64,000 bases of DNA from Candidatus Micrarchaeota archaeon (GTDB lineage: Archaea > Micrarchaeota > Micrarchaeia > Anstonellales > Bilamarchaeaceae): the NCBI GenBank assembly GCA_016932815.1, contig JAFGCC010000014.1, positions 80,129 through 144,128 of the forward strand. Direction: 5' to 3'. Of this stretch, positions 17,357-58,216 are shown piece after piece. The notes beneath the pieces were generated by a model. The model was given only the letters and a program-made list of their open reading frames with translations. It was not told the DNA's origin and searched no databases. Numbering within the stretch: the first letter of the stretch is position 1; every line of letters starts with the position of its first letter. A program made the translations under genes and the position numbers.

Positions 17357-17368
17357 AACAAAAGGTGA

Positions 17369-24353: not shown

Positions 24354-24366
24354 GGATATATAATTG
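24354..24366 (-). promoter_or_regulatory. TATA box (ggatatataattg) upstream of family member B
   Basis: It lies about 35 nt upstream of the ATG at 24321. Confidence 0.4.
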
Positions 24367-24405
24367 TATTCGCCTTGAGGGGAAAACGTGCGGGCACTGA
24401 GGGGC

Positions 24406-26409: not shown

Positions 26410-26434
26410 CTTCTGCGATAGTTACTGTGGTAAA

Positions 26435-26445
26435 GGGTATATAAG
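26435..26445 (-). promoter_or_regulatory. TATA box gggtatataag upstream of family member C
   Basis: It lies about 30 nt upstream of 26409. Confidence 0.45.
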
Positions 26446-26497
26446 AATATTAGCTTTTTGGGTTCCCGCAAACGGCCTGCCGATTTTGGGGGGAGGA

Positions 26498-28174: not shown

Positions 28175-28207
28175 TTTCGAATCCTCCTAAGGTAAATAGC
28201 TCAGAAA

Positions 28208-28219
28208 GGGTATATAATG
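28208..28219 (-). promoter_or_regulatory. TATA box gggtatataatg upstream of family member D
   Basis: It lies about 35 nt upstream of the ATG at 28174. Confidence 0.45.
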
Positions 28220-28260
28220 CTAACTTCTGCGGGGGCGCTTGCCCTTGAGGGATGCGGGAG

Positions 28261-30147: not shown

Positions 30148-30167
30148 GTTTATTCCACCTTGGATTT

Positions 30168-32261: not shown

Positions 32262-32293
32262 TTTCCTGCGCCCCTGCAATTTAGTGGGGGCAG

Positions 32294-32303
32294 GAGATAT
32301 AAG
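32294..32303 (-). promoter_or_regulatory. TATA box upstream of family member F
   Basis: Sequence gagatataag. Confidence 0.4.
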
Positions 32304-32346
32304 TAGGTTGCGGATTTGATGCCGGAAACCGCCTGCAGGATTGCAG

Positions 32347-34104
32347 TCAGCGCCCAGCCGGCAACTCCTCTCCCTTGTAGAATCTCTTTCCGCCCTCGTT
32401 GTAGGCGGCATCCGTTATCAGGCCCATATCGTCCATGACGAATTCCCTGATGTATGCGGGCACTTCGGGGGAGAGGAGCAGGACTTCCCATGCCTCAGAA
32501 ACTTTCGGCCCTATCGCTTTCTTGCCTTCGCCGGTGGAGCACGAATCCAGTATTACTATGGCACCTTCGGCGAATAGCCCATAAAGGTTCCGGAGTTCAT
32601 CCAGGTCCGAGAGGTCAAGCAGGTTCTCCTCCCTGCTCCCAGGCCCCAGGCGTATGGAGTCCGCACTGCCATGGCCCCCTATTACCAGCACGCTTATGCC
32701 GAAATACTTGTCCGCAAATTTCCTTGTGAACTCATAGAACTCCTGCTCGGTTTCGGCCTCAAAGAAAATGGCATTGTAGCTTTCGGCTGCGATTACCGGG
32801 GCGCGGGTATCTGCTTCGCGGTAGAATGCCCCCGTCTGGTCGCCCTTGTTGCCCGCTACTAACATGAGGGGGCGCGGGTCGCCTTTTTCGCCGATGTGCG
32901 CGTAGAGGGATTCAAGCTCTTCTTTTGTGTATCTTGCGAAATACTCGATTCCGTATTCCTTGTAGATGGCACCGGTTTTTTGCGCTCCGATTGTGTCCTT
33001 TGCGTAGGCGAAATTGATGAAGACTTCGCGGTCTTCACTCGTTACTCCCGCTTTTCTGGCGAGTTTTTTTCCTTGCCGCCATTTGCCCCTATATCCTGCA
33101 AGGCGCGGAATCCCGTATTCGCGGGCTATGTTCTCCGGCTCGTTGAGCATATCCAGCCGTTTGAGGATTTTTTCCTTATCCTTCTCTCCTGCCTCTTCCA
33201 TCCCAAGCAGGAGGGTGGAGTAGGATAGGGCTTCTGCGATTTTTAGGAGCTTGGAGGAATCTGCGGATACTGCCCCGCTGACTGTTTTGTTGGAGAGGAA
33301 GCCGAAGAACGCGGACTTCTTCCTCCCGCATATGCTAGCTGCCTCCAGATAGGTTTCGGTAAAACGCTTCGGGCTTTTGGCAAAAAGCCCCGCGAAATCC
33401 TGCATTCCGAAAAAGTAGGCGCTTGCGCTGTTTCCGGCTTCCTGTGCAATCCTTACGAATGCATCGGTGGTCTCTTCGCTCTTGCCCTCTAATATGGGCG
33501 CATAGCCATTGCGGGTGAGCAGCAAGATGGCCGTGTCCATGGCGGTTCCCGCCGCATGCGCAATGCGGATGAATGATTCGGGCTTTTTGGCGAGGAGGGT
33601 GCGCAAGCCAGAGTCGGTGGAGAGTTCCCTGAATGCCCCGCCCAACGCCGCTTTCGTGGTTCTCCCCAGGGCCACGAAGGCATCCGTGATGGTTTCCATG
33701 TTCGGGGAGAAGGCTAGGGCAATCTCTTTTTCCCCCAGGGCGGCAAATGCGTATCCCGCGTTTTTGCCTGCGGCTTCCCTTATGCGGAGGAACGCTTCCG
33801 CTACTTTTTCCGGCTCCGTTGCGAAGGCCTGGGCGATTTCCGCGCTAGCTAGCGCCGCGAGGGCTTCCTTGGAATACTTCCCCGCGGATTCGGCTATTTT
33901 TGCGAGGGCTTCGGAAACTTCGGCGAGCTTTGCGGGGCTGCGGGTTTTTGAGACCGCGTTGATTAATTCTTCGGGGATTTCGATTGCGGGGCCTCCTTCT
34001 GTGCGCACGGCTTCCTGCAATTGTTTTTGGACATAAGAAGGCTCTATGGAGGGAGTTAGCGAGAGCTTTGCGCTTCCCTCTTTTTCCTTTTGCCTCATTG
34101 CCAT
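32347..34104 (-). CDS. Helical-repeat / caspase-like domain protein, family member G (about 586 aa from MAMRQKEKEGSAKLSLTPSI)
   Basis: The C-terminal domain carries ...IGGHGSADSIRLGPG...VILDSCSTGEGKKAIG. The 100-codon N-terminal extension in the track ORF is unlikely to be real (no conservation, and the TATA box is positioned for the start at 34104). Confidence 0.85.
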   Translation of the reverse strand: MAMRQKEKEGSAKLSLTPSIEPSYVQKQLQEAVRTEGGPAIEIPEELINAVSKTRSPAKLAEVSEALAKIAESAGKYSKEALAALASAEIAQAFATEPEKVAEAFLRIREAAGKNAGYAFAALGEKEIALAFSPNMETITDAFVALGRTTKAALGGAFRELSTDSGLRTLLAKKPESFIRIAHAAGTAMDTAILLLTRNGYAPILEGKSEETTDAFVRIAQEAGNSASAYFFGMQDFAGLFAKSPKRFTETYLEAASICGRKKSAFFGFLSNKTVSGAVSADSSKLLKIAEALSYSTLLLGMEEAGEKDKEKILKRLDMLNEPENIAREYGIPRLAGYRGKWRQGKKLARKAGVTSEDREVFINFAYAKDTIGAQKTGAIYKEYGIEYFARYTKEELESLYAHIGEKGDPRPLMLVAGNKGDQTGAFYREADTRAPVIAAESYNAIFFEAETEQEFYEFTRKFADKYFGISVLVIGGHGSADSIRLGPGSREENLLDLSDLDELRNLYGLFAEGAIVILDSCSTGEGKKAIGPKVSEAWEVLLLSPEVPAYIREFVMDDMGLITDAAYNEGGKRFYKGEELPAGR

Positions 34105-34149
34105 TTGGGACCCCCGTTGCCGGATACGTGCAATTCTTGTGGGGGGAAG

Positions 34150-34162
34150 CATATAAATAAAA
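34150..34162 (-). promoter_or_regulatory. TATA box (catataaataaaa) of family member G
   Basis: It lies about 46 nt upstream of the ATG at 34104, in the divergent region shared with the aIF2-beta promoter (TTTTTAAATG at 34218-34227). Confidence 0.45.
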
Positions 34163-34265
34163 CTGATGGGCGGGGATGCGGATTCATTCGGGAAAGAGGG
34201 CTCCCTCAATAATCCTGTTTTTAAATGTTCTCCCCCCATACTCTTCTGCAAACATATCTGGTGAA

Positions 34266-34670
34266 ATGATGGATTATGATTCCCTTTTGGATAAGGCATA
34301 CGAAGCCCTCCCCGACAAGTCAAAAGGCGGGGAACGCTTCGAGATTCCCTCCCTCGATGCATTCGTGGAGGGGAACAAGACGATAATAAAGAACTTTTCA
34401 AGCGTCCTGCAGAAAATACGCAGGGAGCCTGCGCACATAATCAAGTTCTTCACAAAGGAGTTCGCGGTTCCGGCAACCGAGGAGGGGGACAGGCTGGTCC
34501 TGCATCGGAAGCTCCGCATTGAATTAATCAACAAGAAATTTGATGAGTACGTGAAAAGCTACGTGATTTGCGAGCAGTGCGGAAAGCCGGACACGCACAT
34601 TGAGGATTCCGGGCATCGTTCCAAGATGCTCGTATGCGAGGCATGCGGGGCAAGGACTGCGGTGAAATAG
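34266..34670 (+). CDS. Translation initiation factor aIF2 beta subunit
   Basis: It begins MMDYDSLLDKAYEALPD and ends with the zinc ribbon CEQCGKPDTHI...CEACGA. The start is taken at the internal ATGATG, with a TATA box upstream. Confidence 0.85.
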   Translation: MMDYDSLLDKAYEALPDKSKGGERFEIPSLDAFVEGNKTIIKNFSSVLQKIRREPAHIIKFFTKEFAVPATEEGDRLVLHRKLRIELINKKFDEYVKSYVICEQCGKPDTHIEDSGHRSKMLVCEACGARTAVK

Positions 34671-38532: not shown

Positions 38533-39861
38533 ATGAATTGCCGGGTAATGATTATGAAAGAGAGATTTCTTGCTGCACCAAGGAGAGGTATGGGGAAGGA
38601 AGGGAAACAGGTGGTGCTGGGCACCGCAAGGGAATCTTCCAGAAGGGAGTTCTCCAGGTTGGCTGGGGCAGCACTCCTTCTTGCGCCCCTCATGCTGCCA
38701 TCTGTCGCTTTTCCCTCGGGAAAGAAGGAAGAGATAAACCTCAGCAACAAGGAGATTGAGAGGCTTGGGCTGCTGGGGCAGGAATGTGCCGTGCCTACGC
38801 TAATTGGCATCCTAAATAGCCGGAAATCCGTTACCACAAAGCAGTACGCTGCGCAGGCCCTCGGGAGAATCGGAGGGGAGAAGGCGGAGAGGGCATTGCT
38901 CAAGGTCGTAAAGAACAGGCTCAATGAAGAAGATTTAAGGGACTGGGCCCTGATGGCGCTTGGGGAGATTGGAGGCGAGAAGGCGCTGGATGCCGCAATT
39001 GCGTCCATGAAGGACAGGAGCATCACAATTCGGTACACGGCAATTGATGTGGCTTCGGGAATCGGAGGGGGGAAAGCGGAGAAGGCACTGCTTCCCATGA
39101 TAAGGGACCGCAGTGACTTCGTAAGGTGCAGGGCCGTGGAAATGGTTGGAAAACTGCGCGTAGAAAAAGCCGTTCCGGGGTTGAGGAGGATCCTAAAGAA
39201 TCCCAGGGAATTCGAATACGTCAAGGAAGAGGCAATCGGGGCACTCAACCGGATTGGAGGGGAGGCGGCTAGCAAGGCATTGGAAGAAGCTTCACATAAG
39301 AACCTGGCGAAAACGAAGGAAAAAAACGCCATTGAGATTCTTGGGAGGGAAAGCGGCAACCTTTCTACGGCATCGATAGCCACTGCGCTCTCACACCGGT
39401 CGGCAAATGTGAGAATCAAGGCCGCCAAGCTTCTTGGGAAGAGGGACAGCAGGGAGTCTGCTGATGCGCTCATTGGGGCACTGGAGGATGGGCATGCCCG
39501 GGTGCGCGCATATGCCGCAGAATCCCTGGGGAAGATAGGCCGGGGCGCGGGGGCGCTCATAGACCTGCTTGATAAGGAGAAGGTCATATGGGTGAGGCAG
39601 ATGGTGCTCCTTGCGCTTGCGGATATGGAATGCAGGAATGCGCTTCCGACTATAATCGGCATAGTGGAGGAGGGGCTGAGGAACAAGAACTATGATATAG
39701 AAGAGCTGCGCATTGCGGTGTCCGTCCTTGGGACGCTGGGGGACTCTTCCAATATTCCCCTGCTTGAGAGGGTGCGTGAGCAGTATGGGCTCGGGCATGT
39801 GGGCAGCAACGCTTTCTACGCAATAGGGAAGATACAAGAGCGCTGTGGGAGAGCGGAATAA
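38533..39861 (+). CDS. Secreted or periplasm-facing PBS-lyase-type HEAT-repeat protein
   Basis: It begins with a signal-peptide-like N-terminus (AGAALLLAPLMLPSVAFP), followed by at least nine HEAT-like repeats (VRYTAIDVASGIGGGKAEKALLPMIRDRSDFVRCRAVEMVGKL). Confidence 0.75.
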   Translation: MNCRVMIMKERFLAAPRRGMGKEGKQVVLGTARESSRREFSRLAGAALLLAPLMLPSVAFPSGKKEEINLSNKEIERLGLLGQECAVPTLIGILNSRKSVTTKQYAAQALGRIGGEKAERALLKVVKNRLNEEDLRDWALMALGEIGGEKALDAAIASMKDRSITIRYTAIDVASGIGGGKAEKALLPMIRDRSDFVRCRAVEMVGKLRVEKAVPGLRRILKNPREFEYVKEEAIGALNRIGGEAASKALEEASHKNLAKTKEKNAIEILGRESGNLSTASIATALSHRSANVRIKAAKLLGKRDSRESADALIGALEDGHARVRAYAAESLGKIGRGAGALIDLLDKEKVIWVRQMVLLALADMECRNALPTIIGIVEEGLRNKNYDIEELRIAVSVLGTLGDSSNIPLLERVREQYGLGHVGSNAFYAIGKIQERCGRAE

Positions 39862-43489: not shown

Positions 43490-43570
43490 ACGATTGGCGG
43501 GCAGGTGTCCGTTTTGAGGCCTCGTGCAAAGGGGAGGATATATATATATCTATCATTGTATATTCATCAT

Positions 43571-44860
43571 ATGGCAAAAGATTTCAAGAATGCTCCGACC
43601 GGGGAATTGATAGCAGTGCTGGAAAATGAGGCTGCGCAGTCCTCAACCCGGCTTGAGGCCATAAAAGAACTTGGAAGGCGGAAGGAACCGGAGGCGGCTA
43701 CTGCTTTGAGCAATGCTGCCCTGCATGATAAGAGTGCGGATGTGAGGCGCTTTGCGGCTATGGCCCTTGGGGAGGCCAACGGTGAGAAAGCGTTTCCCAT
43801 ACTGATTAAGTTGCTTCAGGACGAGTCTCCGGGCGTGAGGGAAGCATCTGCACTTGCGCTTGGGAGGATTGGGGGGACTAGGCCCAAGCTTCCTGGAGAA
43901 AAGAAAGCGAGGGATGCGCTGCTTAATATTCTGAAGGATAAATATATGGAGGATGCGCAGGTAAGGGCGGCTGCCGCTTCCAGCCTGGGCTGGATCAACA
44001 TGGGCCAGCCCAAATCAGGCGTAACTAATGGAAGGAAGGCGGATGCGGAGGTTATTTCCTCCTTGATTAATGTATTGGGGGATGATGAGGGAAAGATGCT
44101 TTCCGGCTTTGCTGAGGCATTTGGGGAAAATGCGAGAACACTAGCAATCTTAAGGACCGAAATTCTCAGGGTGAAGGCGGCTGAGGCTCTGGGAACAATC
44201 GGGAACCGGTCCGCAGTTCCCAGCTTGATTAAGGCTCTGGGGGATGAAAATCCCAACCTCGTGTTTTCGGCCACGGGCGCTCTTGGGAAAATTGGGGGAA
44301 CGAAATCGAGGGATGCGCTGCTTAATGTAATGGAGGATGAAAAAAGAGATGTGAAGCTTAGGGCATATGCCGCTTTTAAATTGGGCCAGATTAGCGGGGC
44401 GAAAACGGATGCGAAAATTGTTTCCGCCCTGATTAAGGCATTGGAGAGTGGGCATGAGAAGATTAGGGAAAGTGCGGCCAACTCCCTTGGGATAATTGGG
44501 GACGCATCTTCCATACCTGCTTTGGTTAAGACGGTCCTAAACGACAATGCTAAAGTTAGGCGCTCTGCAGCTGGCGCTCTTAGGAGTATGGGGGCAAAGG
44601 CCGTTCCCGCGCTGCTGGAAGTAATAAGCGAGGGGGAGAACCCCTTCCGGAGGGGCAAGACTTCGGATGAAGAAGCGGTTCTTGCCGTGAAAATGCTTAT
44701 GGAAGTCGGGGACTCTTCTGCATTGCCCCAACTTGAGCAGGCTATGCGGCACGGGAACGAGGCGGTGAAGAATGCGGCTTACGATGCAATCAGGGCGATA
44801 GAGGCGCGTGCGGAGCCTGAAACTACTGCCAGCAAGCCCCAGAAGCTAAAGCGCAGGTAA
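43571..44860 (+). CDS. PBS-lyase-type HEAT-repeat protein (cytoplasmic, 429 aa from MAKDFKN)
   Basis: It has at least ten HEAT-like repeats (VRRFAAMALGEANGEKAFPILIKLLQDESPGVREASALALGRIGG). Confidence 0.8.
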   Translation: MAKDFKNAPTGELIAVLENEAAQSSTRLEAIKELGRRKEPEAATALSNAALHDKSADVRRFAAMALGEANGEKAFPILIKLLQDESPGVREASALALGRIGGTRPKLPGEKKARDALLNILKDKYMEDAQVRAAAASSLGWINMGQPKSGVTNGRKADAEVISSLINVLGDDEGKMLSGFAEAFGENARTLAILRTEILRVKAAEALGTIGNRSAVPSLIKALGDENPNLVFSATGALGKIGGTKSRDALLNVMEDEKRDVKLRAYAAFKLGQISGAKTDAKIVSALIKALESGHEKIRESAANSLGIIGDASSIPALVKTVLNDNAKVRRSAAGALRSMGAKAVPALLEVISEGENPFRRGKTSDEEAVLAVKMLMEVGDSSALPQLEQAMRHGNEAVKNAAYDAIRAIEARAEPETTASKPQKLKRR

Positions 44861-48109: not shown

Positions 48110-48227
48110 GAAAATTACCTTATTGGGCGCTGCCCGGGCTTGGCGGGAGCGCTTTTTTGATGCTTTTTTCAGAATAGGATTGTTGATAGAATACCTTTAT
48201 ATTTGTTATAGCGCACAAAGTGGGTAT

Positions 48228-49445
48228 ATGCTCCCATACGCGGCAGCCTTGGATTCGTTGCCACTGCTAACAGCGGACCTCTCCAATGTTGCACAGGTTG
48301 CACCATTTGATTTCTCGCTGGTGTTCTTAGCGATGCTAATTGGGGGCACAATCGGGATACTCTACTACATCTTATCCAAGGTGCTCGCATCCCCGCAGAT
48401 TGAGGCGTTTGCAAAAGAGGAGTTCTCGCAATGGTTCATCAACCTCTTCATAGTCGTATTGTGGCTGGTGGTGTATGGGGCTTTGGGCTCTGTAATCTCC
48501 ATAGTGGCGTGCGACGGGGCTCCCGCGTGCGACCAGTTCAGCGTCGCGTTCTTCGCGCTGGACACGGTTTATTGGCAGCTATTTAGCGCGTATTCTGCGT
48601 TCTTGTCAATTGAGTTCCTTGTGGGTTTCTTCTCAAGTGTGGGCTTCAGCCTTCCTCTGGGAATCCCGCTAGCGGCGGTAAAGTGGTTCGGCTTCTCCCC
48701 CCTGGGGGGGCTTGCGATGCTCAGCAACGTCGTAGTCAATGTTGTTGAGAGCGTGGGGATGCTTGTAGGGCTGGTGGTTGGGAGGGAGCAGCTTTTGAGC
48801 CTGTTTAGGGATATTGTGCCCAAGTTCCTGCTTCCGTTTGGGCTGCTTTTGCGCGCACTCCCGTTTACGAGGATTACCGGCTCAAGCATAATTGCGATTT
48901 CCTTTGCCGCATTCTTCATATTCCCCCTATCAATCATACTCTCGCACTACATGATGTTTGAGGTGCAGGCAACCAACACTTATATCCCTATTGTGCCCAC
49001 TCCCACGGGCTTCTGCGAACTGCCGGAGAACGAGGCGGAATTCCTCAATTCAACTGCGTACCTGGCGGACAAGAACCATGAGGTGGGAGAATACCTCGCA
49101 TACTCGCCTGAGAGCCAGGTGTCTTATGACAGCCTGCGCTACCAATTTACGGAGTTCATCTCCTCTGCGGCGGAAGGGCTTGGGGCGACGACTTCCAACA
49201 TATTCGGGTTCACGGGGCAGTGGTACACCTCGATTAACCTGATTCCGGCGCTTGCCAAGCCGACCACTTTCGCGTATTTCTTCTATTACCTGCTCCTAAA
49301 CCAGCTCCAGGTCTCAGCGAGGCTTGCCGTTATGACCGCCGTGTCGTTCGTGATGGAGATACTAATCACGATTACCGGATACAGGGCGATTGCCGCCGCA
49401 ATAGGCGGAGAGCTCGAGATACTCGGGCTAACGAAGGTGGTCTAG
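48228..49445 (+). CDS. Polytopic membrane protein, paralog 1 of a six-gene family (start at the internal ATG after the LeuS overlap)
   Basis: It has about 8 TM segments. The core motif is LLRALPFTRITGSSIIAISFAAFFIFPLS and the C-terminus is GGELEILGLTKVV. A TATA box (cctttatattt) lies about 25 nt upstream. Confidence 0.75.
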   Translation: MLPYAAALDSLPLLTADLSNVAQVAPFDFSLVFLAMLIGGTIGILYYILSKVLASPQIEAFAKEEFSQWFINLFIVVLWLVVYGALGSVISIVACDGAPACDQFSVAFFALDTVYWQLFSAYSAFLSIEFLVGFFSSVGFSLPLGIPLAAVKWFGFSPLGGLAMLSNVVVNVVESVGMLVGLVVGREQLLSLFRDIVPKFLLPFGLLLRALPFTRITGSSIIAISFAAFFIFPLSIILSHYMMFEVQATNTYIPIVPTPTGFCELPENEAEFLNSTAYLADKNHEVGEYLAYSPESQVSYDSLRYQFTEFISSAAEGLGATTSNIFGFTGQWYTSINLIPALAKPTTFAYFFYYLLLNQLQVSARLAVMTAVSFVMEILITITGYRAIAAAIGGELEILGLTKVV

Positions 49446-49446
49446 G

Positions 49447-50391
49447 ATGCTTCCCGATTTGCACGTGCAGGTAATTGGCGTGACGATTGCGGCCATTGCC
49501 GCCTACATCGGGGTTGTGTTCATGGCCTCAAAGGCGCTTGGGCGCCCCCAGTTGACGGCGTACGCGAAAATTGAGGCGAACCAGCTATTCATCTCCGGGC
49601 TAATCCTGGTGATTGCCCTTGGGGCGTGGCACTTCTCAAACGGGATGATGGAGCACCTTACCGGATTCGGGCTTGAATCTGCGCCGCTGAAGTTTCTGGA
49701 CCGGATAATCAACGAGGGGATACTGCCCGTTTACGTCAAGCTTGTGCGCATGGAGGTTGCGCTTACCTATTTCAACGCGATTGAATACAGGATGGGGCCC
49801 GGGGTTTGGAACTTCACTACGCGCGTGGTTCCGGGGCTCGACCCCCTAATCTCTATTGTGCGCATGCTCATCTTTTCATATACCGCATTGTACGGGACGT
49901 TCTCGGTATTCGTCATTGTATTCACGATTGTGCCGGGGATACTCTATCCATTCATCCTTCCTGCGGGGATAGTGCTGCGTTTTTTCCCGCCAACGCGTGA
50001 TGCGGGAGTCTACCTCATAGCGCTAGCCCTGGCTTTCCAGACGCTCTTTCCGATACTTTATGTGATGAACTTCGTCGCTTTGAGCGAGATGTGGGTGGGG
50101 CACGAATGGGTGGCCGACGACCCCGACAGGCATGACGAATATACCCCGAACATAGAGCAAAGCAGTTATTTCAACGAGGTTAATGCCGCTGCGGGGGCAG
50201 CCGGCACGGCCGCCAGCGGATTCTCAACGTGGTTCCCGGTGCTCCAGCCGTTTTCGTTCGCGGGGCTCCTGCCGTTTTTGGACAGGGTTGCCCAGCTCTC
50301 ATTAGTGGGGCTGGTACTCCCGGCGCTGGTGTTTACGCTGGTGCTCTCAATGGTGAGCGCGGTGACGAAATTCATAACGGGGAGGGGATGA
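49447..50391 (+). CDS. Polytopic membrane protein, paralog 2
   Basis: Core motif VLRFFPPTRDAGVYLIALALAF. It starts 2 nt after the stop of paralog 1. Confidence 0.75.
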   Translation: MLPDLHVQVIGVTIAAIAAYIGVVFMASKALGRPQLTAYAKIEANQLFISGLILVIALGAWHFSNGMMEHLTGFGLESAPLKFLDRIINEGILPVYVKLVRMEVALTYFNAIEYRMGPGVWNFTTRVVPGLDPLISIVRMLIFSYTALYGTFSVFVIVFTIVPGILYPFILPAGIVLRFFPPTRDAGVYLIALALAFQTLFPILYVMNFVALSEMWVGHEWVADDPDRHDEYTPNIEQSSYFNEVNAAAGAAGTAASGFSTWFPVLQPFSFAGLLPFLDRVAQLSLVGLVLPALVFTLVLSMVSAVTKFITGRG

Positions 50392-50392
50392 G

Positions 50393-51649
50393 ATGCTGCC
50401 GACAGACCTATCCAGCATGGCAAGCCTTGAAGCGGTGTGGCTTGAGTGGCAGGTTGTCGCTTTTGCGGCACTCATGATTGCAACCGGGTTTGCGGCAATC
50501 GCCTATGCGTTTGGGCACTTCCTCTCCAACGAGAAGATAATCGCTTTTGCGAAATTGGAATTCGCGGAAATCATATACTCGGCGGTGCTAATCGTTTCTG
50601 TGCTCTGGGTGCTGGGGATGGCATCGGGGGCCGTGGAGGTCATGATTGAGGGGGCTTATCCGCACAACCTGGGGAGCACTATTTGCAGCCCCACATACGA
50701 TGCGTATTTCGGGGGGGATGCGAACTTCCCCTGCCACCTGAGGGTTGCGCGGTATTACCTGGATACGCTCTACAACGAGGGAAAGGAGTTCAACTACGAG
50801 CTCCTCTCTGCGCACATGTGGTATTCGTTCTTCCAGGGATTCCACCTTACAGGAGACTTCCATGAGCATGCAAGCGGGACTGTGGAATTCTCTCCTATGG
50901 GTTCGCTCTTTAGCCTGCCCTCTGCGGTTTATTCCTACATGTTTGAGTTCGGGATGCGCGCCATGCTGATTGTGCGCTTCCAGGCGTTCTTCATAAATTT
51001 CATAAACTACTCGCTATACCCGGTGCTGCTGATGCTGGGGATGATACTGCGCACATTCCCGTTCTCAAGGAGGATTGGGGGGCTTTTAATGGCGATTGGA
51101 ATCTGCCTTTACTTCGTTTTCCCGATGTTTTATGTGTTTGGGGGGTACGTGTTTGAGAACGTGCGCGAGAACGTGGACTGCGAGAATCCGGATGCGCAGG
51201 GGTATTGCCCCGTGATTGCCACCCTCACTTTCAACCCGCAGGAGCTTTATGAGGGGGTGGACTTCGTATCGGAGGACCCAAACGGGGTTAGCGCGATTGG
51301 GAAGGTTAAGCCTGCGGAGATAGGCACTGATGAGTTCAAGCTGTTGTATAATGGAACGGACACGTATTGCGATGTCAACAACATGGGGGTGGAGGGAATC
51401 GGCTCCACCACGTGGAACCTCCTGCGCTCCTCGGTTTTCGCCTTTGATTTTACCACGCTGCTATCAAGCGAGGAATACATGGATTCCATAGTCGGCCCCG
51501 GAGGGGCGATAGACGCTACTGCGAGATTGACGTTCTTCTCGATGTTCTTTGCGCTTCTTGCAATCTTCTCAACTATCGGAGCCATAAGGAGCCTATCCCC
51601 GATATTCGGGGGAGACATTGAGCTTGCGGGGCTTACGCACTTGATATGA
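50393..51649 (+). CDS. Polytopic membrane protein, paralog 3
   Basis: Core motif ILRTFPFSRRIGGLLMAIGICLYFVFP. C-terminus GGDIELAGLTHLI. Confidence 0.75.
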   Translation: MLPTDLSSMASLEAVWLEWQVVAFAALMIATGFAAIAYAFGHFLSNEKIIAFAKLEFAEIIYSAVLIVSVLWVLGMASGAVEVMIEGAYPHNLGSTICSPTYDAYFGGDANFPCHLRVARYYLDTLYNEGKEFNYELLSAHMWYSFFQGFHLTGDFHEHASGTVEFSPMGSLFSLPSAVYSYMFEFGMRAMLIVRFQAFFINFINYSLYPVLLMLGMILRTFPFSRRIGGLLMAIGICLYFVFPMFYVFGGYVFENVRENVDCENPDAQGYCPVIATLTFNPQELYEGVDFVSEDPNGVSAIGKVKPAEIGTDEFKLLYNGTDTYCDVNNMGVEGIGSTTWNLLRSSVFAFDFTTLLSSEEYMDSIVGPGGAIDATARLTFFSMFFALLAIFSTIGAIRSLSPIFGGDIELAGLTHLI

Positions 51650-51655
51650 GGTTGT

Positions 51656-52909
51656 ATGCAAATGAAGGATGCGGAAATGAAAATCAGGGTCGGGGCTCTC
51701 CTGCTCTCCCTGCTGCTGTGCTCGTGCGCGTTCGCGCAGGAAGGCTCAGGCGACTCTCCGCTATACGATTTGCCGGATGGCGCTTCCGCAGAGGGGGCGG
51801 CAACGGATGGAGTCCTTAGTGCCTCGGAGCCCGCAAGTTATGGGGCGCTAGCAGAATTCGACGCGAACCAGGACGAGGTCTCAGAGCGGATTGATGAGCA
51901 GCTTGATTCCACCCTGGGCGTGTTTAGCGGGACCTGCGCGCAGGACCCTGCGGAGAATTTCGATTTTGTTGTTCCCACTATGCTCGCATTGCTGGTAATC
52001 GGGATGGGGATTGCGATTTTCTACATGGCGGGCAACTTCCTTGGCTCGCCGCAGCTTATTGCGATGAGCAAGCAGGAGCTATTTGAGCTAATACACACCG
52101 CGCTGATTGTGGTGTTGTTTGCGCTGTTATTGAGATTCGCAGACCAGCTGATTTTCTCCGGGAGCGGGGGGAGCAGCATATACGATGTTTCCCTTGAGTA
52201 TTCGCTCCTGATGATACACAAGATAACAAAGGACACTATGTGGCTATCCCTCATAAACACGCTAATATACATGCTATATAGCGCTCCTTTGAGGCTGGGC
52301 GGCTCACTGCACCATGCTGTGCACTTCAACCTGGGGGGAGTGCTCAAGCCGTTCGTGGACGCGGTCGGGACCATGGCTTCGCTCTTGTCTTTTGCAATAG
52401 GCGAATGGATTGCGAACATCAGCGTTTTGTGCTTTATCAAGAGGTTCGTGCCCAATTTGTTCCTGCCAATCGGGGTGCTCCTAAAGGCGTTCCCGCAAAC
52501 GCGGGGCGGGGGGAATGCGGTAATAGCGATATGCATAGCGTTCTTCCTGATATACCCGGTAATGCTTTATATGAACCATGAGGCATACCTGTACAAATAC
52601 GGGGCGATAGGCGAGCGCAGCGGCCTGGAGGAAATCGTGAGCGCATTCATGGTGGAAACCGGATGGCTCAACCTTTCGTTCTATGCGTTCTTCCTGTGGC
52701 TCTTTACCGGGCAGCTTGTGGGAATTGCCTTCTTGACGCAGTTCGTGGTATTCTTCATAGACATGCTCTCGGATGTCATATACACTGTTTTCGTTTTGAG
52801 CATATTCCTGCCCCTAATGAACATATTCGTAACGCTCACTTTTGCAAGGGAGATAGCGAAGTACTTCGGGACGGAGATAAACATAGCCGCGTTCGTGAGG
52901 CTGATATGA
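51656..52909 (+). CDS. Polytopic membrane protein, paralog 4 (with an extra N-terminal signal peptide and acidic extracellular extension)
   Basis: It begins with the signal peptide MKIRVGALLLSLLLCSCAFAQ. Core motif LLKAFPQTRGGGNAVIAICIAFFLIYPV. C-terminus GTEINIAAFVRLI. Confidence 0.75.
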   Translation: MQMKDAEMKIRVGALLLSLLLCSCAFAQEGSGDSPLYDLPDGASAEGAATDGVLSASEPASYGALAEFDANQDEVSERIDEQLDSTLGVFSGTCAQDPAENFDFVVPTMLALLVIGMGIAIFYMAGNFLGSPQLIAMSKQELFELIHTALIVVLFALLLRFADQLIFSGSGGSSIYDVSLEYSLLMIHKITKDTMWLSLINTLIYMLYSAPLRLGGSLHHAVHFNLGGVLKPFVDAVGTMASLLSFAIGEWIANISVLCFIKRFVPNLFLPIGVLLKAFPQTRGGGNAVIAICIAFFLIYPVMLYMNHEAYLYKYGAIGERSGLEEIVSAFMVETGWLNLSFYAFFLWLFTGQLVGIAFLTQFVVFFIDMLSDVIYTVFVLSIFLPLMNIFVTLTFAREIAKYFGTEINIAAFVRLI

Positions 52910-52919
52910 GGTTGTTGAA

Positions 52920-54011
52920 ATGGAGATACTAGCTTCAAAATTCTGTTTTGCTTCGGGCTCTTCCATTGCGGATGCATTCTACATCCCGGAGTGGCAAACA
53001 CTCTCGCTGCTGGCCCTTGTAATCTCGGTGGGAATCCTCTCGGTCATTTACCTCTTCAACAGGCTCTTTGGCAACGAGCAGGGCGAGACTTGGGTAAAGA
53101 TTGAACTATTTGAGATACTGGCCACCTCGTTTATAGTGGTAATCATAATCGGGCTGCTCAATGCGGCCTGCGTGATTCCGGTTGGGGACCTGGGGATTAG
53201 CGTGGGAGACGATGCGGCGAACCTCAACGTGTTTGATGCGGCAGCGGAAACGCTAAGCCAGTTTTCGTGGGTATTGACTTATACGATGACTGCCCTGCAC
53301 ACTCTTTACATACCATTTGATTTCATGACCACCCAGACCATGACCGCACAGCCTTTGGGGATGGGAACCACGGTGCAGCCTACTGCTGGAATGGGGGCAG
53401 TCATCAAGCCCGGATACGTGAACGCGCTGCAGATGATGAGCGTTGCGTTCATAGTGGTGCGCGCGGAGCTGCTGCTCCTGGACTTTGCAACCTTTGCATT
53501 GATTAAGTATTACCTGCCCCTTGGGATACTATTGCGGTGCTTTGCTCCCACTAGGCGTATTGGGGGGACGCTAATCGGGCTGGTTGTGGGGGTGGTGCTG
53601 GTCCTCCCATCGCTTGTAGTCCTAAACGGGGTTTTCACGGAGTCGTTTACTTCTGCTGCAAACCCGTTTGGGTTGAATGAGCCAATCGAATTCTTAGGCT
53701 CCCTGCTTAGCGCCGGGGGGACTGCGATATGGAGCGACATGTGGGAGAGCTTCTCAGGTGCGTGGGGAGGCGGGAGCGGCTCGTTTACGCCGCTTAGCCT
53801 CTTCCAGATACCAATAGGGCTAGCATCGTCCATAGTGGGGCTGTTTGCAGGGCTTTATTCGTTCGTTTTCATGTGGGCTGCGGGGCAGGCATTCCTGATT
53901 GGGCTGTTCTTCCCGGCACTCAATACCCTTTTACTAGTTACCACCATAAGATACCTTACAAGGGCGTTCGGTGAGGAGATAGACGTCACGAACCTTACGA
54001 GGATGGTATAG
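52920..54011 (+). CDS. Polytopic membrane protein, paralog 5
   Basis: Core motif LLRCFAPTRRIGGTLIGLVVGVVLVLPS. C-terminus GEEIDVTNLTRMV. The junction sequence tgatatgaggttgt is shared with the paralog 3/4 junction. Confidence 0.75.
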   Translation: MEILASKFCFASGSSIADAFYIPEWQTLSLLALVISVGILSVIYLFNRLFGNEQGETWVKIELFEILATSFIVVIIIGLLNAACVIPVGDLGISVGDDAANLNVFDAAAETLSQFSWVLTYTMTALHTLYIPFDFMTTQTMTAQPLGMGTTVQPTAGMGAVIKPGYVNALQMMSVAFIVVRAELLLLDFATFALIKYYLPLGILLRCFAPTRRIGGTLIGLVVGVVLVLPSLVVLNGVFTESFTSAANPFGLNEPIEFLGSLLSAGGTAIWSDMWESFSGAWGGGSGSFTPLSLFQIPIGLASSIVGLFAGLYSFVFMWAAGQAFLIGLFFPALNTLLLVTTIRYLTRAFGEEIDVTNLTRMV

Positions 54012-55043
54012 ATGGCATGGGAAACAATCGCGATTGTCGCAGTCGGGCTTTCCGCCCTCCTTGCAGCGATAATGGTGATGTTCTCAAGGCTCTTTGGAGT
54101 GCCTTCCCTTGAGCAGTGGGCGAAAGCGGAGATGGTGTTTTCCATATCCACCTTGTTCTTGGTGCTCTTCCTGGTGGTCACGGTGCAGGCGGTGGAGCCA
54201 TTCCTAAAGGACCTGGTAGTGGAGATGAGCACGTATAATTACGCGCAGGCTACGGGGACTGCGATGGAGGTGCAGGTTTCAGATGACGCGAACCTCATGG
54301 ATTATACGATTGCATACATGACTTCCATGACTTCGTGCATGAGGACGCTGTTTGCATTTTTAATGAAGCTGAATTTCCCCCTGGAACTTACCGCATCATT
54401 CAAGATTGACGCTTTCATGTTTGATATTGTGACCGGGTGGGCGTTCAAGGGGCCGGTGCAGACTATACGGAACATTACCAATTACATTACGTTTACCCTG
54501 TTCATATACTACCTGTTCATACACGTTATGAGATTCGTCAATGCAACCGCCATGAGCGTGTTCCTCCCATTGGGCATAGTGCTGCGGCAGTTCCCGCCCA
54601 CAAGGGGGGCCGGGGCATTCGTGATTGCGTTTGCGCTTGGGTTCTATTTCGTCTTCCCATTTGCGTACCTGCTTGCAATCAACGTTACGCCGCAGACTTT
54701 TGCGTGCCTTCCTTTGCCCGAATTTGACATACCTTCTGCGGCTGGGCTTGGCGATATGAGCAAGGCATTTGAGCTTGCGGCGTGGACGGATGCAAACCAG
54801 AACGAGATTCTAGGGGCGATACAGGGAACCGGGACCTACATTGCCGGATTCTCATTGGACCAGTTCAACATAATCCCCGATGCCCTTGAGCCTGCGGGGG
54901 GGAGGCTTGCGGGCTTCTCCATAAACCTGTGCTGCCTGCCATTTATCGCGATGATGCTCACTATGACGTTCATACTCTCTACTATGAACCTCTTTGGGGC
55001 GAACCTGCCGGAAGTCGGAAGGGGATTCGTGAAATTGATTTGA
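54012..55043 (+). CDS. Polytopic membrane protein, paralog 6
   Basis: Core motif VLRQFPPTRGAGAFVIAFALGFYFVFPFAY. Its ATG abuts the preceding stop. Confidence 0.75.
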   Translation: MAWETIAIVAVGLSALLAAIMVMFSRLFGVPSLEQWAKAEMVFSISTLFLVLFLVVTVQAVEPFLKDLVVEMSTYNYAQATGTAMEVQVSDDANLMDYTIAYMTSMTSCMRTLFAFLMKLNFPLELTASFKIDAFMFDIVTGWAFKGPVQTIRNITNYITFTLFIYYLFIHVMRFVNATAMSVFLPLGIVLRQFPPTRGAGAFVIAFALGFYFVFPFAYLLAINVTPQTFACLPLPEFDIPSAAGLGDMSKAFELAAWTDANQNEILGAIQGTGTYIAGFSLDQFNIIPDALEPAGGRLAGFSINLCCLPFIAMMLTMTFILSTMNLFGANLPEVGRGFVKLI

Positions 55044-55132: not shown

Positions 55133-55690
55133 ATGGACAGGTTCATCCTTGACACCAGCCTTTTCGTGAATCCGGCTTCGAGGAAGCAATTCGGGAAGAC
55201 TCCCCCGGAGGCCGTAAGGGCATTTGTCCGCAAGGCAAAGGCGAAGAAGGGGAAGGCGGAGTTTTATATGCCCCCCCTGGTGATGGACGAACTTGCGAAC
55301 TTTGCGAAAAAGGATGCGGGAAAACTCTCGGCGGTTGTGAAAAAGCGCGCCCCGAACATCTATGGGATATACATACCCGCTGCGATACTCTATTCGTTTA
55401 TAGAGGACGTGCGCGCAAGGGTGAATAAGGGGCTGAGGCTTGCAGAGGAATTCGCGCAGGACAACCGTCCGGAAAATGCGGAAAAACTAAGCAAGCTGCG
55501 CGCGAAATACCGCGATGCCATGCGCAAGGGGATGGTGGATTCCCGGGAGGATTTGGAGATAATCCTGCTTGCATACGAACTGGGGGCGGCAATCGTGACA
55601 TCCGATGAGGGGATAACCCTCATGGCCAACCAGATTGGCGTTGAGTGGATAGAGGCAGAGAAGTTCGGGGAACTCCTAAAAGCCCTCTAA
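55133..55690 (+). CDS. PIN-domain nuclease (UPF0278 / HARP-like protein-only RNase P family candidate)
   Basis: 185 aa. It begins with the PIN start MDRFILDTSLFVNP, with later acidic positions (DELANF, DSRED, VTSDEGI). It lies downstream of the membrane-protein operon. Confidence 0.6.
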   Translation: MDRFILDTSLFVNPASRKQFGKTPPEAVRAFVRKAKAKKGKAEFYMPPLVMDELANFAKKDAGKLSAVVKKRAPNIYGIYIPAAILYSFIEDVRARVNKGLRLAEEFAQDNRPENAEKLSKLRAKYRDAMRKGMVDSREDLEIILLAYELGAAIVTSDEGITLMANQIGVEWIEAEKFGELLKAL

Positions 55691-55704
55691 GGTTCGGGGA
55701 GCCG

Positions 55705-57138
55705 TTATTTAGCGCCGCCCTCTTCTTTCCCAGGGGTTTTTTCTTTGGCGGCACCGCTATCTTCTTCTAGCATTTCCATTGCAACGTCTTCTGTGCTGGA
55801 TTCCTTCCTGGCTGCGCGCTTCTGCTTCTCCCTCTGTACTTTTGCGACTACCACCTTGTCCAGGTCGGCCCCCTTTTCATAGACGATTTTGGGCTTATGC
55901 AGCGCCTCTTCGCGCACCACCTGGAGGGCTCCGAAGGTGGTCACTATTATGCTTCCCACAATTACCACGAAGGCGATGTCGGAGAAGCCGCTAATCTGCG
56001 CGGTTATTTCCGCATAGGTCTTAGGGTCCATCGCCTCGGGGTGGTCTGCGGCATATTGGATTAGGATTCCCATGGGATAGGTTGCGAGCACTGCGGAGCC
56101 GAAGCCGCGCGGAATCAGGATTTCCATCTTGTGCGCATCGGCGCGCAGGTCGCTGCCCATAGTGGCAATCTGGACGGAAACCTTCCTTGCCACATAAAGC
56201 AGGATTATTATGCCCACTCCCAGGAACACCATGTCCATGCTTGCAATTGAGACTAGGGCACCTAGGAACACGAAGAAGAATGTGCGCACCATAAACGAGA
56301 TTTCGTCTTGGAACTTGAGCATTTCTTCGTCGTTGGTAATTGTGGTGAGGCCGGTTGCCCTGCCTATTTCGGCCATGTTTCCCAGCATGATCCCAAAGAC
56401 TAAGACTCCTATTGCGCCGCTTGCTCCTACGGATTCAACTGCGACGTAGAATAGCAGGGTGACTGCGAAAGTTAGCATGTGGAAGAACTTTAGTTCGCGC
56501 ATCTGGGTTCCGACTAGCATCCATATGGCGCCTGCGACTACCCCCAGGAAGGCAGCAGTTGAGAACTGGTTTACCACCCCGCTTACTATGCTCCCTATAT
56601 CCAAGGCGCCGCTTATTAGGCCGGAAGTGAGTGTAATTACGAGCACTACGCCCAGAACGTCTGTGATTGCGGACTCTATGCTCTGGAAGTGCTTGGTTTC
56701 TTCTTTGAGGCCAATTCCATCTGAGACGGGATTCACCATGGCTCCGGTCGTTCCCGCGAGGATTGCTCCGAGCAGGACTCCGACTATTACGTTGCCAAAG
56801 AGGTAGGTCCAGAGTGCCGCCACCAGGGCGATTGAGAGGATTCCCACCAATAACCCCATTGCGACTCCCCTGGCACTCTCGCTAATTAGCTTGCGCAGGT
56901 TCATCCTCGTTCCGCTATCAAAAAGCAGGATCATAAGGGCGAGAGGGCCAATTAGGCTCTGGAGTTCTCTTAGAAGGTCAATATCCACCATGCCCGTTAG
57001 TGGGCCTAGCATGTAGCCTATTGCAAGGAGGATTAGCACCGGGGAAATCTTGTATTTTTTAAACAGCATTTCGCCCAGGAACCCTATTACCAGAATCCCT
57101 CCGAGGATTGTAAATGAAACCAGTGTTTCGCTTGCCAT
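55705..57138 (-). CDS. Na+/H+ (cation:proton) antiporter, CPA1/NhaP type, with a C-terminal hydrophilic tail
   Basis: It has about 11-12 TM segments typical of the Na_H_Exchanger family. The lysine-rich tail reads KVQREKQKRAARKE. Confidence 0.85.
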   Translation of the reverse strand: MASETLVSFTILGGILVIGFLGEMLFKKYKISPVLILLAIGYMLGPLTGMVDIDLLRELQSLIGPLALMILLFDSGTRMNLRKLISESARGVAMGLLVGILSIALVAALWTYLFGNVIVGVLLGAILAGTTGAMVNPVSDGIGLKEETKHFQSIESAITDVLGVVLVITLTSGLISGALDIGSIVSGVVNQFSTAAFLGVVAGAIWMLVGTQMRELKFFHMLTFAVTLLFYVAVESVGASGAIGVLVFGIMLGNMAEIGRATGLTTITNDEEMLKFQDEISFMVRTFFFVFLGALVSIASMDMVFLGVGIIILLYVARKVSVQIATMGSDLRADAHKMEILIPRGFGSAVLATYPMGILIQYAADHPEAMDPKTYAEITAQISGFSDIAFVVIVGSIIVTTFGALQVVREEALHKPKIVYEKGADLDKVVVAKVQREKQKRAARKESSTEDVAMEMLEEDSGAAKEKTPGKEEGGAK

Positions 57139-57148
57139 CTTTTTTCAC

Positions 57149-58216
57149 CTAGTCTGCCTGTGCGTACCCCTCAATTGCACGCCTTATCTTCCTGCTGCCC
57201 TCCTTGTACTTCTTTTTGAAGCGTATAATGAGCGCACCCTTTAAGTTAGTTTCCCGCACGTCCCTTATTTCCACTTCCTTTGACATGTGCGAGAGGAGTT
57301 TGCCCCAGGTTTCCCTGTTTTTTATCGTGAATTCAAATTCCTCTGCGGCCTCCCCACCGGAAGTGAGGGCGGAATAGAGGAGGCAGTGGAGGGCTTCTCC
57401 CATGCGCGCATCGTATTGCTTTTTGTTTAGGCCAAGTTCATTTACGGATGCCGCGCAGCGGAACACCCTCTGCTTCATGAATCCCAGGGGCATATCAAAA
57501 ATGAGGTGCGAGTTTTCTGCGAGGTCGCGGATGTCGGAGGAAGGGAGGACGTATTTCAGGATTCTCCTTGGGTTCTCCTGCTTTAGGACCATTCCCTCTG
57601 CGCCCTTCTTGTCAAGGGAGATTGCCAGCTTTTTTAGCTGGCTGCGGTTTCCGCCGCCCACTCTTTTTACCAGGGGAACCGGGTTTAGGCCATAATCATT
57701 GCACAGCTTCCTGCGCTCTTTTGGGGAGAGGTAGTTGTTCTTCCCGTCTCCCATGTCGAATACGTAGTATTTTGCCCCGGTTCCGGATGGGGCTTTTGTG
57801 TAGGGGGTGTTTCCCACCATTTCCATGTAGAGGACCTTGTTTGGGTGGGCTGCGAAAAACGCCTTTGCGTTTTCATCATCGGATAGTTTTTCTGTTGCGA
57901 AGAAATCCAGGAAGCCGCCCCTTGAGATGCACATTATTTTTCCGCCCTCATAAATCGTGCGGAGGTTATAGCCGTCTATTTTTTCCTCCACGAATATTTC
58001 GCCTTCGTGCAGGTTCTTCTGCACGCCCTTTTCAAGCGAGAACACCCTGCGGATTTTGGGGTAGCCGTATATTACCCTCTTTCCGGTTACCACTGTTCCG
58101 CGGGGGATTTTGCCTATGCTCTCCGAGAACCTGCATACGCCGTCGCGCTCTTGTATCCTGCCCTTTTTGATTGCATTCAGGATTTTTTTGCGCAAGCTTG
58201 CTTTTAGGTCCTTCAT
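57149..58216 (-). CDS. ATP-dependent RNA ligase, Pab1020/Rnl3 family (COG1423)
   Basis: The nucleotidyltransferase motif I (EEKIDGYNLR) is present. Length (355 aa) and overall layout match archaeal Rnl3. Confidence 0.6.
   Translation of the reverse strand: MKDLKASLRKKILNAIKKGRIQERDGVCRFSESIGKIPRGTVVTGKRVIYGYPKIRRVFSLEKGVQKNLHEGEIFVEEKIDGYNLRTIYEGGKIMCISRGGFLDFFATEKLSDDENAKAFFAAHPNKVLYMEMVGNTPYTKAPSGTGAKYYVFDMGDGKNNYLSPKERRKLCNDYGLNPVPLVKRVGGGNRSQLKKLAISLDKKGAEGMVLKQENPRRILKYVLPSSDIRDLAENSHLIFDMPLGFMKQRVFRCAASVNELGLNKKQYDARMGEALHCLLYSALTSGGEAAEEFEFTIKNRETWGKLLSHMSKEVEIRDVRETNLKGALIIRFKKKYKEGSRKIRRAIEGYAQAD

Follow-up and report, generated by a model that had tools for sequence, protein, structure and literature searches.

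Which kind of system is encoded by six consecutive, related membrane protein genes in the genome of a DPANN archaeon of the Micrarchaeota, and do the six products act together or separately? We analysed a 64,000 nt stretch of DNA from this archaeon, hereafter called the window, in which the genes form an operon of six consecutive plus strand ORFs at 48228-55043, approximately 6.8 kb. Micrarchaeota are host-dependent organisms whose genomes are very small, and next to nothing is known of their envelope or of the machinery by which they contact a host.

Gene organisation of the locus

The genes, here named g1 to g6, are separated by 1, 1, 6, 10 and 0 nt. The ORF lengths and spacing agree with an earlier note on this DNA, made from the sequence, which described six tightly packed plus strand genes of 314-418 aa lying 0-10 nt apart. 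In brief, g1 (48228-49445, plus strand, 405 aa) starts with an ATG at 48228 that is common to its orthologues. It carries its copy of the core motif, GLLLRALPFTRITG, at residues 205-218 (nt 48840-48881), and two cysteines sited after TM2, Cys95 and Cys101, are invariant among g1 orthologues. The shortest paralogue, of 314 aa, is encoded by g2 (49447-50391, plus strand; core GIVLRFFPPTRDAG, nt 49966-50007) and terminates in a conserved TKFITGRG. The g3 gene (50393-51649, plus strand; core GMILRTFPFSRRIG, nt 51038-51079) encodes 418 aa with two big acidic, cysteine-containing loops of 122 and 130 aa.

The product of g4 (51656-52909, plus strand, 417 aa; core GVLLKAFPQTRGGG, nt 52472-52513) begins with a signal-peptide-like helix, MQMKDAEMKIRVGALLLSLLLCSCAFAQ, at residues ~1-28, followed by an acidic extension of ~75 aa that contains a conserved Cys94, and then by the common core. 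The N-terminal hydrophobic segment is kept across 27 g4 orthologues and the acidic stretch holds 17 D/E against 1 K/R in 73 aa, in line with the extra signal-peptide-like segment and acidic extension previously ascribed to this gene. The last two genes are g5 (52920-54011, plus strand, 363 aa; core GILLRCFAPTRRIG, nt 53523-53564) and g6 (54012-55043, plus strand, 343 aa; core GIVLRQFPPTRGAG, nt 54573-54614).

As also stated earlier, there are no ATPase genes within the operon and a PIN gene lies downstream. This neighbour, at 55133-55690 on the plus strand, is by profile match a PIN_5 "RNA ligase partner" gene. Most loci keep this gene in synteny with the array, sometimes with other genes intervening, and it is probably outside the system. 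The gene for the lipid enzyme CarS is also found near the array in most loci. The neighbours of the array are housekeeping genes and its GC content matches that of the remainder of the window; the array is therefore a native core locus.

Probable promoter and ribosome-binding-like sites

A TATA-box-like element read from the sequence, CTTTATATTT (48195-48204, plus strand), is located 24 nt upstream of the g1 ATG, and similar TTTATAT elements are found 25-32 nt upstream of g1 in four other loci (L001, L003, L035 and L040). The TATA box reported earlier is thus present, but position 48195, given as the start of the operon, belongs to this box and the g1 start codon lies at 48228. Judged from its sequence and position, CTTTATATTT is probably the sole promoter of the operon, from which g1 would be transcribed with no leader or almost none. 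A sigma-70 promoter scan was set aside, as it is not applicable to archaea.

Every internal gene in the window has a GGAGG/GAGGT-like site, g1 being the one placed behind the TATA box. The duplicated junction sequence seen before is real: the 14-mer TGATATGAGGTTGT has exactly two matches against 0.03 expected by chance, one at the g3/g4 junction (51642-51655, plus strand), where it comprises the last g3 codons with the stop and a GAGGT ribosome-binding-like site for g4, and a second at the g4/g5 junction (52902-52915, plus strand). It amounts to no more than an "Ile-stop" with a GAGGT Shine-Dalgarno-like site behind it. No other repeated DNA was detected between the copies.

In 31 loci the modal distance between the genes is -4 to +10 nt, and the tight packing is conserved there. 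The stop/start overlaps claimed earlier do not occur in the window, where the genes abut; real overlaps of 1 and 4 nt are seen in orthologous arrays. Taken together, the spacing, the ribosome-binding-like sites and the TATA-led g1 make an organisation typical of co-translated subunits.

Shared motifs and predicted topology

The six proteins are polytopic membrane paralogues, 17-26% identical in pairwise comparisons, and all pairs from g1 to g6 are related by BLASTP (E 4e-4 to 7e-19). All keep the common core G..LR.FP.TR..G. The motifs noted earlier in TM1, core and tail were recovered as A/S-K-x-E after TM1, G..L[RK]....[TS]R..G ahead of TM4 and G(G)E.E..GLT+hh in the C-terminal tail, with the correction that g2 lacks the tail motif (GGE..GLT); the subunits are therefore not fully equivalent. 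An alignment of the family with itself by hhalign revealed no internal repeat. Among 353 family members, E65, G205, R209, R215, G218 and P233 are near-invariant, and no Cys or His is invariant family-wide. In the same set, conservation is highest in the loop between TM3 and TM4 (0.61), followed by the C-tail (0.53) and the loop between TM1 and TM2 (0.46); the lowest values are those of the second outer loop, at 0.13, and of the N-terminus, at 0.14. The outer loops diverge strongly between paralogues.

Family-averaged hydropathy gave five core TM segments, with additional hydrophobic stretches in g4 and g5. We infer a topology with the N-terminus outside, five core TM helices and the C-terminus inside, because the g4 signal peptide and acidic extension precede TM1, the motif loop is rich in K/R, and the outer loops are acidic and bear cysteines. 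With this predicted topology the conserved parts would face the cytoplasm, and the variable, acidic parts would be the loops outside the cell.

An AlphaFold2 monomer model of g1 (pLDDT 80.7, pTM 0.72) contains ~8 long helices. The earlier count of ~8 TM helices is matched by these, but several of them are extramembrane and five make up the TM core. The helices measure 34-49 residues, longer than the bilayer needs, and in the model this fits a bundle projecting from the membrane. It should be noted that a monomer folding with decent confidence alone (pTM 0.72) speaks against a complex. Foldseek against PDB gave no match below E 0.1, and no full-length structural analogue.

Conservation across Micrarchaeota

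Whether related arrays have a constant number of genes was a question raised by the earlier note. Exactly six tandem, same-strand family genes were found in 32/32 other loci with enough DNA, in which g1 identity to the window copy ranges from 93% down to ~25%. Order and size pattern are unchanged across these loci, and neither copy-number change nor concerted evolution was seen in them. The gene at a given position always has as its best match the window paralogue of the same position, and the orthology is strictly 1:1. Identity is 0.40-0.44 within positional classes versus 0.17-0.21 between them, and NJ analysis of the 6 genes from each of 30 genomes recovered every positional class as a single clean bipartition. 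As strict 1:1 positional orthology extends down to ~25% identity, the duplications predate the sampled radiation. The same six genes in the same order in every genome examined point to a fixed multi-subunit membrane complex.

These genomes keep local synteny well in general, SPP-Trm5-LeuRS being another conserved example.

Searches for known families and partner genes

Scans of all six proteins against Pfam, NCBIfam, PADLOC and PHROGs gave no match; the only entries were at noise level (DUF4257, E 0.15; CrgA, E 0.1; one PHROG, E 0.02). A family-profile search of PDB sequences at E<=10 returned 0 matches, and no relatives were found in the viral contigs scanned. With no PADLOC or PHROGs match and no viral relatives, anti-phage defence and phage proteins were rejected as candidates. 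Divergent members used as queries in a second, word-indexed protein search retrieved just 8 proteins, of which those labelled are from Micrarchaeota. The family comprises 3037 cluster representatives, and literature searches found no description of the six-paralogue family. The earlier view that the family could not be assigned holds for profiles, as Pfam tests of VirB6/TrbL, exosortase/archaeosortase and FtsX-like proteins were all negative. The family is categorically new in the sense that every tested family failed to match, which is not the same as a demonstrated new mechanism.

Exosortases and archaeosortases had no Pfam or NCBIfam match, and the invariant set here is E, G, R, R, G and P, without Cys or His, unlike the Cys/Arg/His catalytic set that marks those enzymes. 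FtsX-like proteins and ABC permeases likewise had no Pfam or NCBIfam match, and no ABC ATPase lies in or adjoins any array. One protein, P0004, bears the JGI label "ABC-type multidrug transport", which is without domain support. The T2SSF platform (PilC/FlaJ) gave no Pfam match. A T2SSE ATPase adjoins the array in a single locus, L036, and tblastn found no further copies of it in any locus or in the window; it was rejected as a conserved partner because it is absent from the related locus L049. In the loci examined, the array has no consistent linkage to any ATPase, pilin or substrate gene.

Proposed complex and alternative explanations

We suggest, with a probability of roughly one half, that the operon encodes six distinct subunits of one obligate hetero-oligomeric membrane complex of the Micrarchaeota core envelope. 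We infer 1:1 assembly and function. Each N-out subunit would carry a TM1-TM2 hairpin with the conserved K-x-E at its cytoplasmic tip and, after a first extracellular domain, a TM3-TM4 hairpin with the near-invariant G..LR....TR..G at its tip, followed by the variable acidic second extracellular loop, TM5 and the conserved cytoplasmic tail. The conserved cytoplasmic and TM-core surface may be the repeated contact that joins the six paralogues, presumably as a ring or bundle with pseudo-symmetry that contains each of them once. The diverged, cysteine-containing outer loops would then form an asymmetric, position-specific outer face. The most likely job of such an assembly would be that of a conduit or platform across the membrane, that is a channel, a translocon or an envelope-anchoring machine.

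The same genes could encode six independent paralogous membrane proteins, such as transporters or receptors of different specificities, that are co-regulated in one operon. Strongly different outer loops are as expected with different ligands, the model of a monomer reaches reasonable confidence by itself, and synteny is conserved generally in the lineage; six separately essential paralogues could also keep number and order fixed. However, no gain, loss or reordering was seen in ~32 genomes spanning phylum-level divergence, whereas copy number usually varies in subfunctionalised transporter families. Moreover, it is a shared cytoplasmic face that is conserved, rather than a substrate site that varies, and no transporter family is detectable, so we consider this explanation possible but unlikely. 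The second reading offered earlier, a variable surface-exposed family, which would be a surface-antigen or host-range family diversifying via recent tandem duplication, is contradicted by the data and deserves hardly any credence. The extracellular loops are indeed the least conserved parts, but the strict orthology, the six members in 32/32 loci, the monophyletic positional classes, the low identity between classes and a 14-nt junction as sole repeated DNA all stand against it. The hetero-oligomeric complex proposed alongside it is the better supported of the two, by the indirect, comparative evidence of fixed number and order, packing and the putative shared face.

It seems improbable that the six are pore subunits, of a very divergent VirB6/TrbL-like or CedA/TedA-like type, in a T4SS- or pilus-related translocation platform whose hexameric secretion ATPase would be encoded elsewhere. 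In hmmscan against Pfam at E<=1 none of the six proteins matched PF04610, the family that five plasmid VirB6/TrbL proteins, run as positive control, match at 1e-26 to 1e-46. With hhalign, using family alignments of 16, 41 and 353 sequences, the comparison with 5 TrbL proteins gave a probability of 0.1% and E 0.44-0.63, the TrbL profile being shallow (Neff ~3). VirB4/VirD4 ATPases and a VirB2-type pilin are absent from the window and ~40 related loci. A slightly longer shot still is a role as scaffolds that shape membranes or handle lipids, built on a prominin/TTYH-like plan and acting at host contact, for example in lipid uptake. TTYH and prominin have five TM helices, an outside N-terminus and two extracellular helical loops, a layout in common with the array proteins, and most loci have CarS in the vicinity. 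The best-ranked Foldseek PDB matches of the first model were TTYH2 and TTYH3, but with TM-scores of 0.17-0.25 the fold match is not significant.

Returning to the hetero-oligomeric complex, a more specific version of it would be a lineage-defining hetero-hexameric ring or pore of Micrarchaeota, perhaps also of Iainarchaeota, a neighbouring lineage within DPANN, built from the six ancient paralogues with a fold without solved analogue and serving as conduit or attachment machine for host exchange; we regard this as speculative and rather doubtful. The array family amounts to >3000 sequence clusters without annotation or detectable relative, and ~6.8 kb of a tiny genome has stayed unbroken, with its gene order unchanged, throughout the lineage sampled. 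Six proteins from one operon are a bounded target for structural and cell biologists, and may represent a new membrane-protein fold as well as a rare prokaryotic membrane complex built from a fixed set of paralogues. If the function is transport or cell-cell contact, it bears directly on how DPANN archaea exploit their hosts.

Comparison with known systems

VirB6/TrbL (PF04610; TrwI, 7o3v) and the archaeal CedA/TedA are polytopic, like the six paralogues. Both also share with them the predicted plan of an outside N-terminus, ~5 TM helices, a large outer loop after TM2 and an inside C-terminus, together with long helices extending past the membrane, and have a superficially similar P...L..F..T motif ahead of TM4. 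They form multi-copy membrane bundles, as the six paralogues may do. However, sequence and profile comparisons detected no significant similarity to the array proteins, the fold comparison with TrwI (7o3v_F) gave no significant match, and a single gene supplies the homo-oligomeric VirB6, against six fixed paralogues in the array. Unlike VirB6/TrbL systems, the array has no VirB4, VirB2 or coupling-protein genes nearby, and its locus is chromosomal and housekeeping, not mobile.

TTYH and prominin resemble the array proteins in having five TM helices, N-out/C-in topology and two large extracellular loops with helices and cysteines, but are eukaryotic families without G..LR.FP.TR..G.

A parallel in organisation may be found in the Mcm2-7 and proteasome alpha/beta rings of eukaryotes and in the pseudo-hexameric FliP5-FliQ4-FliR1 export gate, an analogy without homology in which assembly and stoichiometry are, on our side, putative. 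In each of these a subunit was duplicated into a fixed, distinct and position-specific set, as happened with the six genes here, each of which has 1:1 orthologues. Among prokaryotic membrane complexes, sets of paralogues fixed in this way are, to our knowledge, uncommon.

Organization of the array

Six consecutive paralogous genes for membrane proteins, g1 to g6, form an array on the plus strand of the window, as the earlier note had proposed. In brief, these are g1 (48228-49445, 405 aa), g2 (49447-50391, 314 aa), g3 (50393-51649, 418 aa), g4 (51656-52909, 417 aa), g5 (52920-54011, 363 aa) and g6 (54012-55043, 343 aa). All six ORFs were confirmed and every pair is related by BLASTP (E 4e-4 to 7e-19); in a MAFFT alignment g2-g6 are 21-26% identical to g1. 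The left boundary first placed at 48195 marks a TATA-like element read from the sequence, CTTTATATTT (48195-48204, plus strand), and not a start codon; the g1 ATG, a start also used by the g1 orthologues, lies 24 nt downstream.

The intergenic gaps measure 1, 1, 6, 10 and 0 nt, within the 0-10 nt first described, but the genes abut and do not show the stop/start overlaps described with them. A GGAGG/GAGGT-like site precedes each internal gene. The duplicated junction sequence is a 14-mer, TGATATGAGGTTGT, with just two occurrences, one at the g3/g4 junction and one at g4/g5 (0.03 expected). It spans conserved codons of the C-terminus, the stop codon and the ribosome-binding site, and is not a mobile repeat. 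The GC content of the array is the same as in the remainder of the window.

Genomic context

The window is archaeal, encoding an exosome operon, SBDS, ribosomal proteins L1 and L10, ArgRS, LeuRS and RIO1, as well as a Pab1020-type RNA ligase with its PIN_5 partner and CDP-archaeol synthase (CarS). LeuRS lies upstream of the array in divergent orientation. Downstream are the expected PIN-domain gene, here PIN_5 (55133-55690, plus strand), a Na+/H+ exchanger, the RNA ligase and CarS. The exchanger gene sits between the PIN_5 and RNA ligase genes (55133-58216), unlike in many related loci, where these two are directly adjacent. Across loci the flanks are housekeeping genes, with LeuRS or AspRS and SurE upstream and PIN_5, RNA ligase and CarS downstream. 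Since other local synteny is also conserved, linkage to CarS or PIN_5 gives little information on function.

In agreement with the first reading, we did not find an ATPase, pilin or other obvious partner inside the operon or beside it in the window. In one divergent related locus, L036, a T2SSE ATPase (438 aa, CpaF/TadA-like, 17325-18641) starts 20 nt past g6; among plasmid proteins it is matched best by members of the CpaF family, at up to 38% identity. No T2SSF platform gene is nearby, no second copy of the ATPase occurs in the window or any other locus, and it is absent downstream of the array in the related locus L049. We treat the adjacency as incidental, and rejected the ATPase, found in L036 only, as a conserved partner.

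Distribution and conservation

When 1.84 billion cluster representatives were searched exhaustively with a profile, 3037 proteins passed E<=1e-3, and 2307 of them E<=1e-10. All close homologues of g1 are annotated as hypothetical proteins and come from Candidatus Micrarchaeota MAGs, and none of the 38 nearer homologues (0/38) has a precomputed Pfam domain. Scanning one genome per GTDB species gave 31 loci, and others came from looking up more divergent representatives. The 31 are labelled Micrarchaeota/Micrarchaeia (27), Bilamarchaeum (1, order Anstonellales), only "archaeon" (1) and "Candidatus ainarchaeum sp." (2); the last label, also carried by one more protein, would be Iainarchaeota by NCBI naming. 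No relatives were found on viral contigs.

A family HMM scan found exactly six family genes, in tandem and on one strand, at each locus with enough DNA, and the pattern of gene sizes is conserved as well. L035-L038, L040, L048 and L049 likewise hold six-gene arrays, and those with fewer genes are all truncated by contig ends. In each locus with BLAST calls the gene at a given position best matches the window gene of the same position, even in L036 and L037 with identities of 25-33%. In a neighbour-joining tree built from the six proteins of 30 genomes, every positional class is set off by one clean bipartition; mean identities are 0.40-0.44 within and 0.17-0.21 between classes. Gene spacing has its mode at -4 to +10 nt (31 loci). 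Based on these observations, the genes constitute six ancient orthogroups that predate the radiation of the sampled lineage, and their number and order have remained the same ever since. The six-paralogue membrane operon is real, lineage-wide and strictly conserved, a stronger finding than the earlier note could know.

Two local deviations were seen. In L002 (13464-14731) g4 is split into ORFs of 239 and 172 aa, probably by an assembly or sequencing frameshift; it is intact at 422 aa in the near-identical contigs L003 and L009. In one large clade (L020-L034) g2, otherwise the smallest subunit, carries an insertion of about 200 aa and reaches ~505-540 aa, versus ~310-340 aa in the window's clade and nearer relatives.

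Protein anatomy and predicted structure

Hydropathy averaged over 27 orthologues per class gave a common plan for the six paralogues. TM1, a short polar loop with [AS]-K-x-E, and TM2 are followed by a large first loop of ~70-120 aa with Cys residues that are conserved in g1, g3, g4 and g6. TM3, long and moderately hydrophobic, ends in LP.G..LR and leads through the loop FP.TR..G into TM4, which contains an invariant Pro. Then come a second large loop of 60-130 aa, acidic and poorly conserved, and TM5, of greater length in g4 and g5. The proteins are thus multi-TM as first read, but with a predicted core of five helices rather than about eight. The C-terminal tail G(G)E.E..GLT+hh is present in all copies but g2. 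We did not find internal repeats.

The signal peptide and acidic extension noticed in g4 (51656-52909) were recovered: an N-terminal signal-peptide-like segment (K/R-rich n-region, hydrophobic core, AFA-Q) and then an acidic stretch of ~75 aa precede TM1, which suggests that TM1 starts on the outer side of the membrane. With the K/R-rich motif loop and the acidic outer loops also considered, this points to an N-out, C-in core of five TM helices for the family. Near-invariant across 353 members are E65, G205, R209, R215, G218 and P233 (g1 numbering). The most conserved regions are the TM3-TM4 motif loop (0.61), C-tail (0.53) and TM1-TM2 loop (0.46), and the least conserved are the second outer loop (0.13) and N-terminus (0.14), so that the conserved face would be the cytoplasmic one and the variable face would lie outside.

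AlphaFold2 modelling of g1 improved with alignment depth, from pLDDT 71.7 (41 sequences) to pLDDT 80.7 and pTM 0.72 (142 sequences, 214 residues above 90). The model is all-helical except for one beta-hairpin (residues 140-156), and its very long helices (56-94, 103-137, 162-210, 212-245, 345-392) must, as modelled, form hairpins reaching well past a bilayer.

Other features of the window

A second paralogue array (20100-34401, minus strand) comprises seven consecutive genes for proteins of 655, 699, 667, 558, 636, ~747 and ~684 aa, 35-46% identical over full length. They are soluble, with no TM segment and no Pfam match, and member m1 has no PDB sequence match. They share a conserved C-terminal block, HG...S...GPG..E...LDL.D..E...L.GLF.......L.SCSTG, whose His...Cys spacing presumably recalls clan CD (caspase/CHAT-like) peptidases. 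The adjacent minus-strand genes at 3947-5746 and 5879-7348 (599 and 489 aa, 60% mutual identity) encode lysine-rich N-termini (MAQKQKPKPK...) and have no Pfam match. On the plus strand, the 986-aa product of 12558-15518, which contains NosD / right-handed beta-helix repeats, is probably a large surface protein, and two HEAT/PBS-lyase-repeat proteins (38533-39861 and 43505-44860; 442 and 451 aa) are encoded a few kb apart, in genes missing from the syntenic block of most related loci.

Interpretation and comparison with known families

We suggest, with a probability of about 0.5, that the operon encodes an obligate hetero-oligomeric membrane complex in which each of the six proteins is a distinct subunit, probably present once. 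This was one of two readings in the earlier note and is now the better supported, although the assembly itself is deduced: fixed number and order with 1:1 orthology is the pattern expected for subunits of one assembly. The same pattern excludes the other reading, a variable surface-exposed family, and makes a variable antigen family scarcely credible despite the diverged loops. Six paralogues acting independently would be unlikely beside so constant an array. In the proposed complex, the subunits would be held together via the shared TM core and the cytoplasmic motifs (E65, R209, R215, tail), and the diverged loops may form an asymmetric, acidic, disulfide-stabilised outer surface. Long projecting helices and membrane-spanning hairpins would fit a channel, a translocon or an envelope-anchoring machine alike.

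None of g1-g6 matched Pfam or NCBIfam at E<=1, or PADLOC and PHROGs at E<=0.1 except for one weak PHROG match (E 0.022), and PDB sequences gave no match at E<=10. The profile tests proposed earlier (VirB6/TrbL, exosortase/archaeosortase, FtsX-like) gave no match. Membership of the exosortase/archaeosortase, FtsX/ABC and T2SSF families was rejected, there being no profile matches, no invariant Cys/His and no linked ATPase. VirB6/TrbL membership is not supported: five proteins from conjugative plasmids, confirmed against PF04610, gave hhalign probabilities of 0.1% (E 0.4-0.6) against family alignments of 16, 41 and 353 sequences. The only local alignment sets P.G..LR.FP.TR against the VirB6 motif API...L..F..T, a curiosity and not evidence. 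As archaeal VirB6 homologues are extremely divergent (PMC9905601), the family may still be functionally analogous to them; a very divergent VirB6-like secretion platform is improbable. Quite improbable too is a prominin/TTYH-like scaffold for membrane shaping or lipid handling.

We found no earlier description of the family in the literature; it is large, unannotated and without a detectable sequence or fold relative. As a counterweight, DPANN genomes commonly contain families that lack annotation, and nothing so far ties the array to a specific process. It nonetheless offers a well-defined target in a symbiotic phylum that is poorly understood, and its six-paralogue arrangement is unusual among the membrane systems of prokaryotes.
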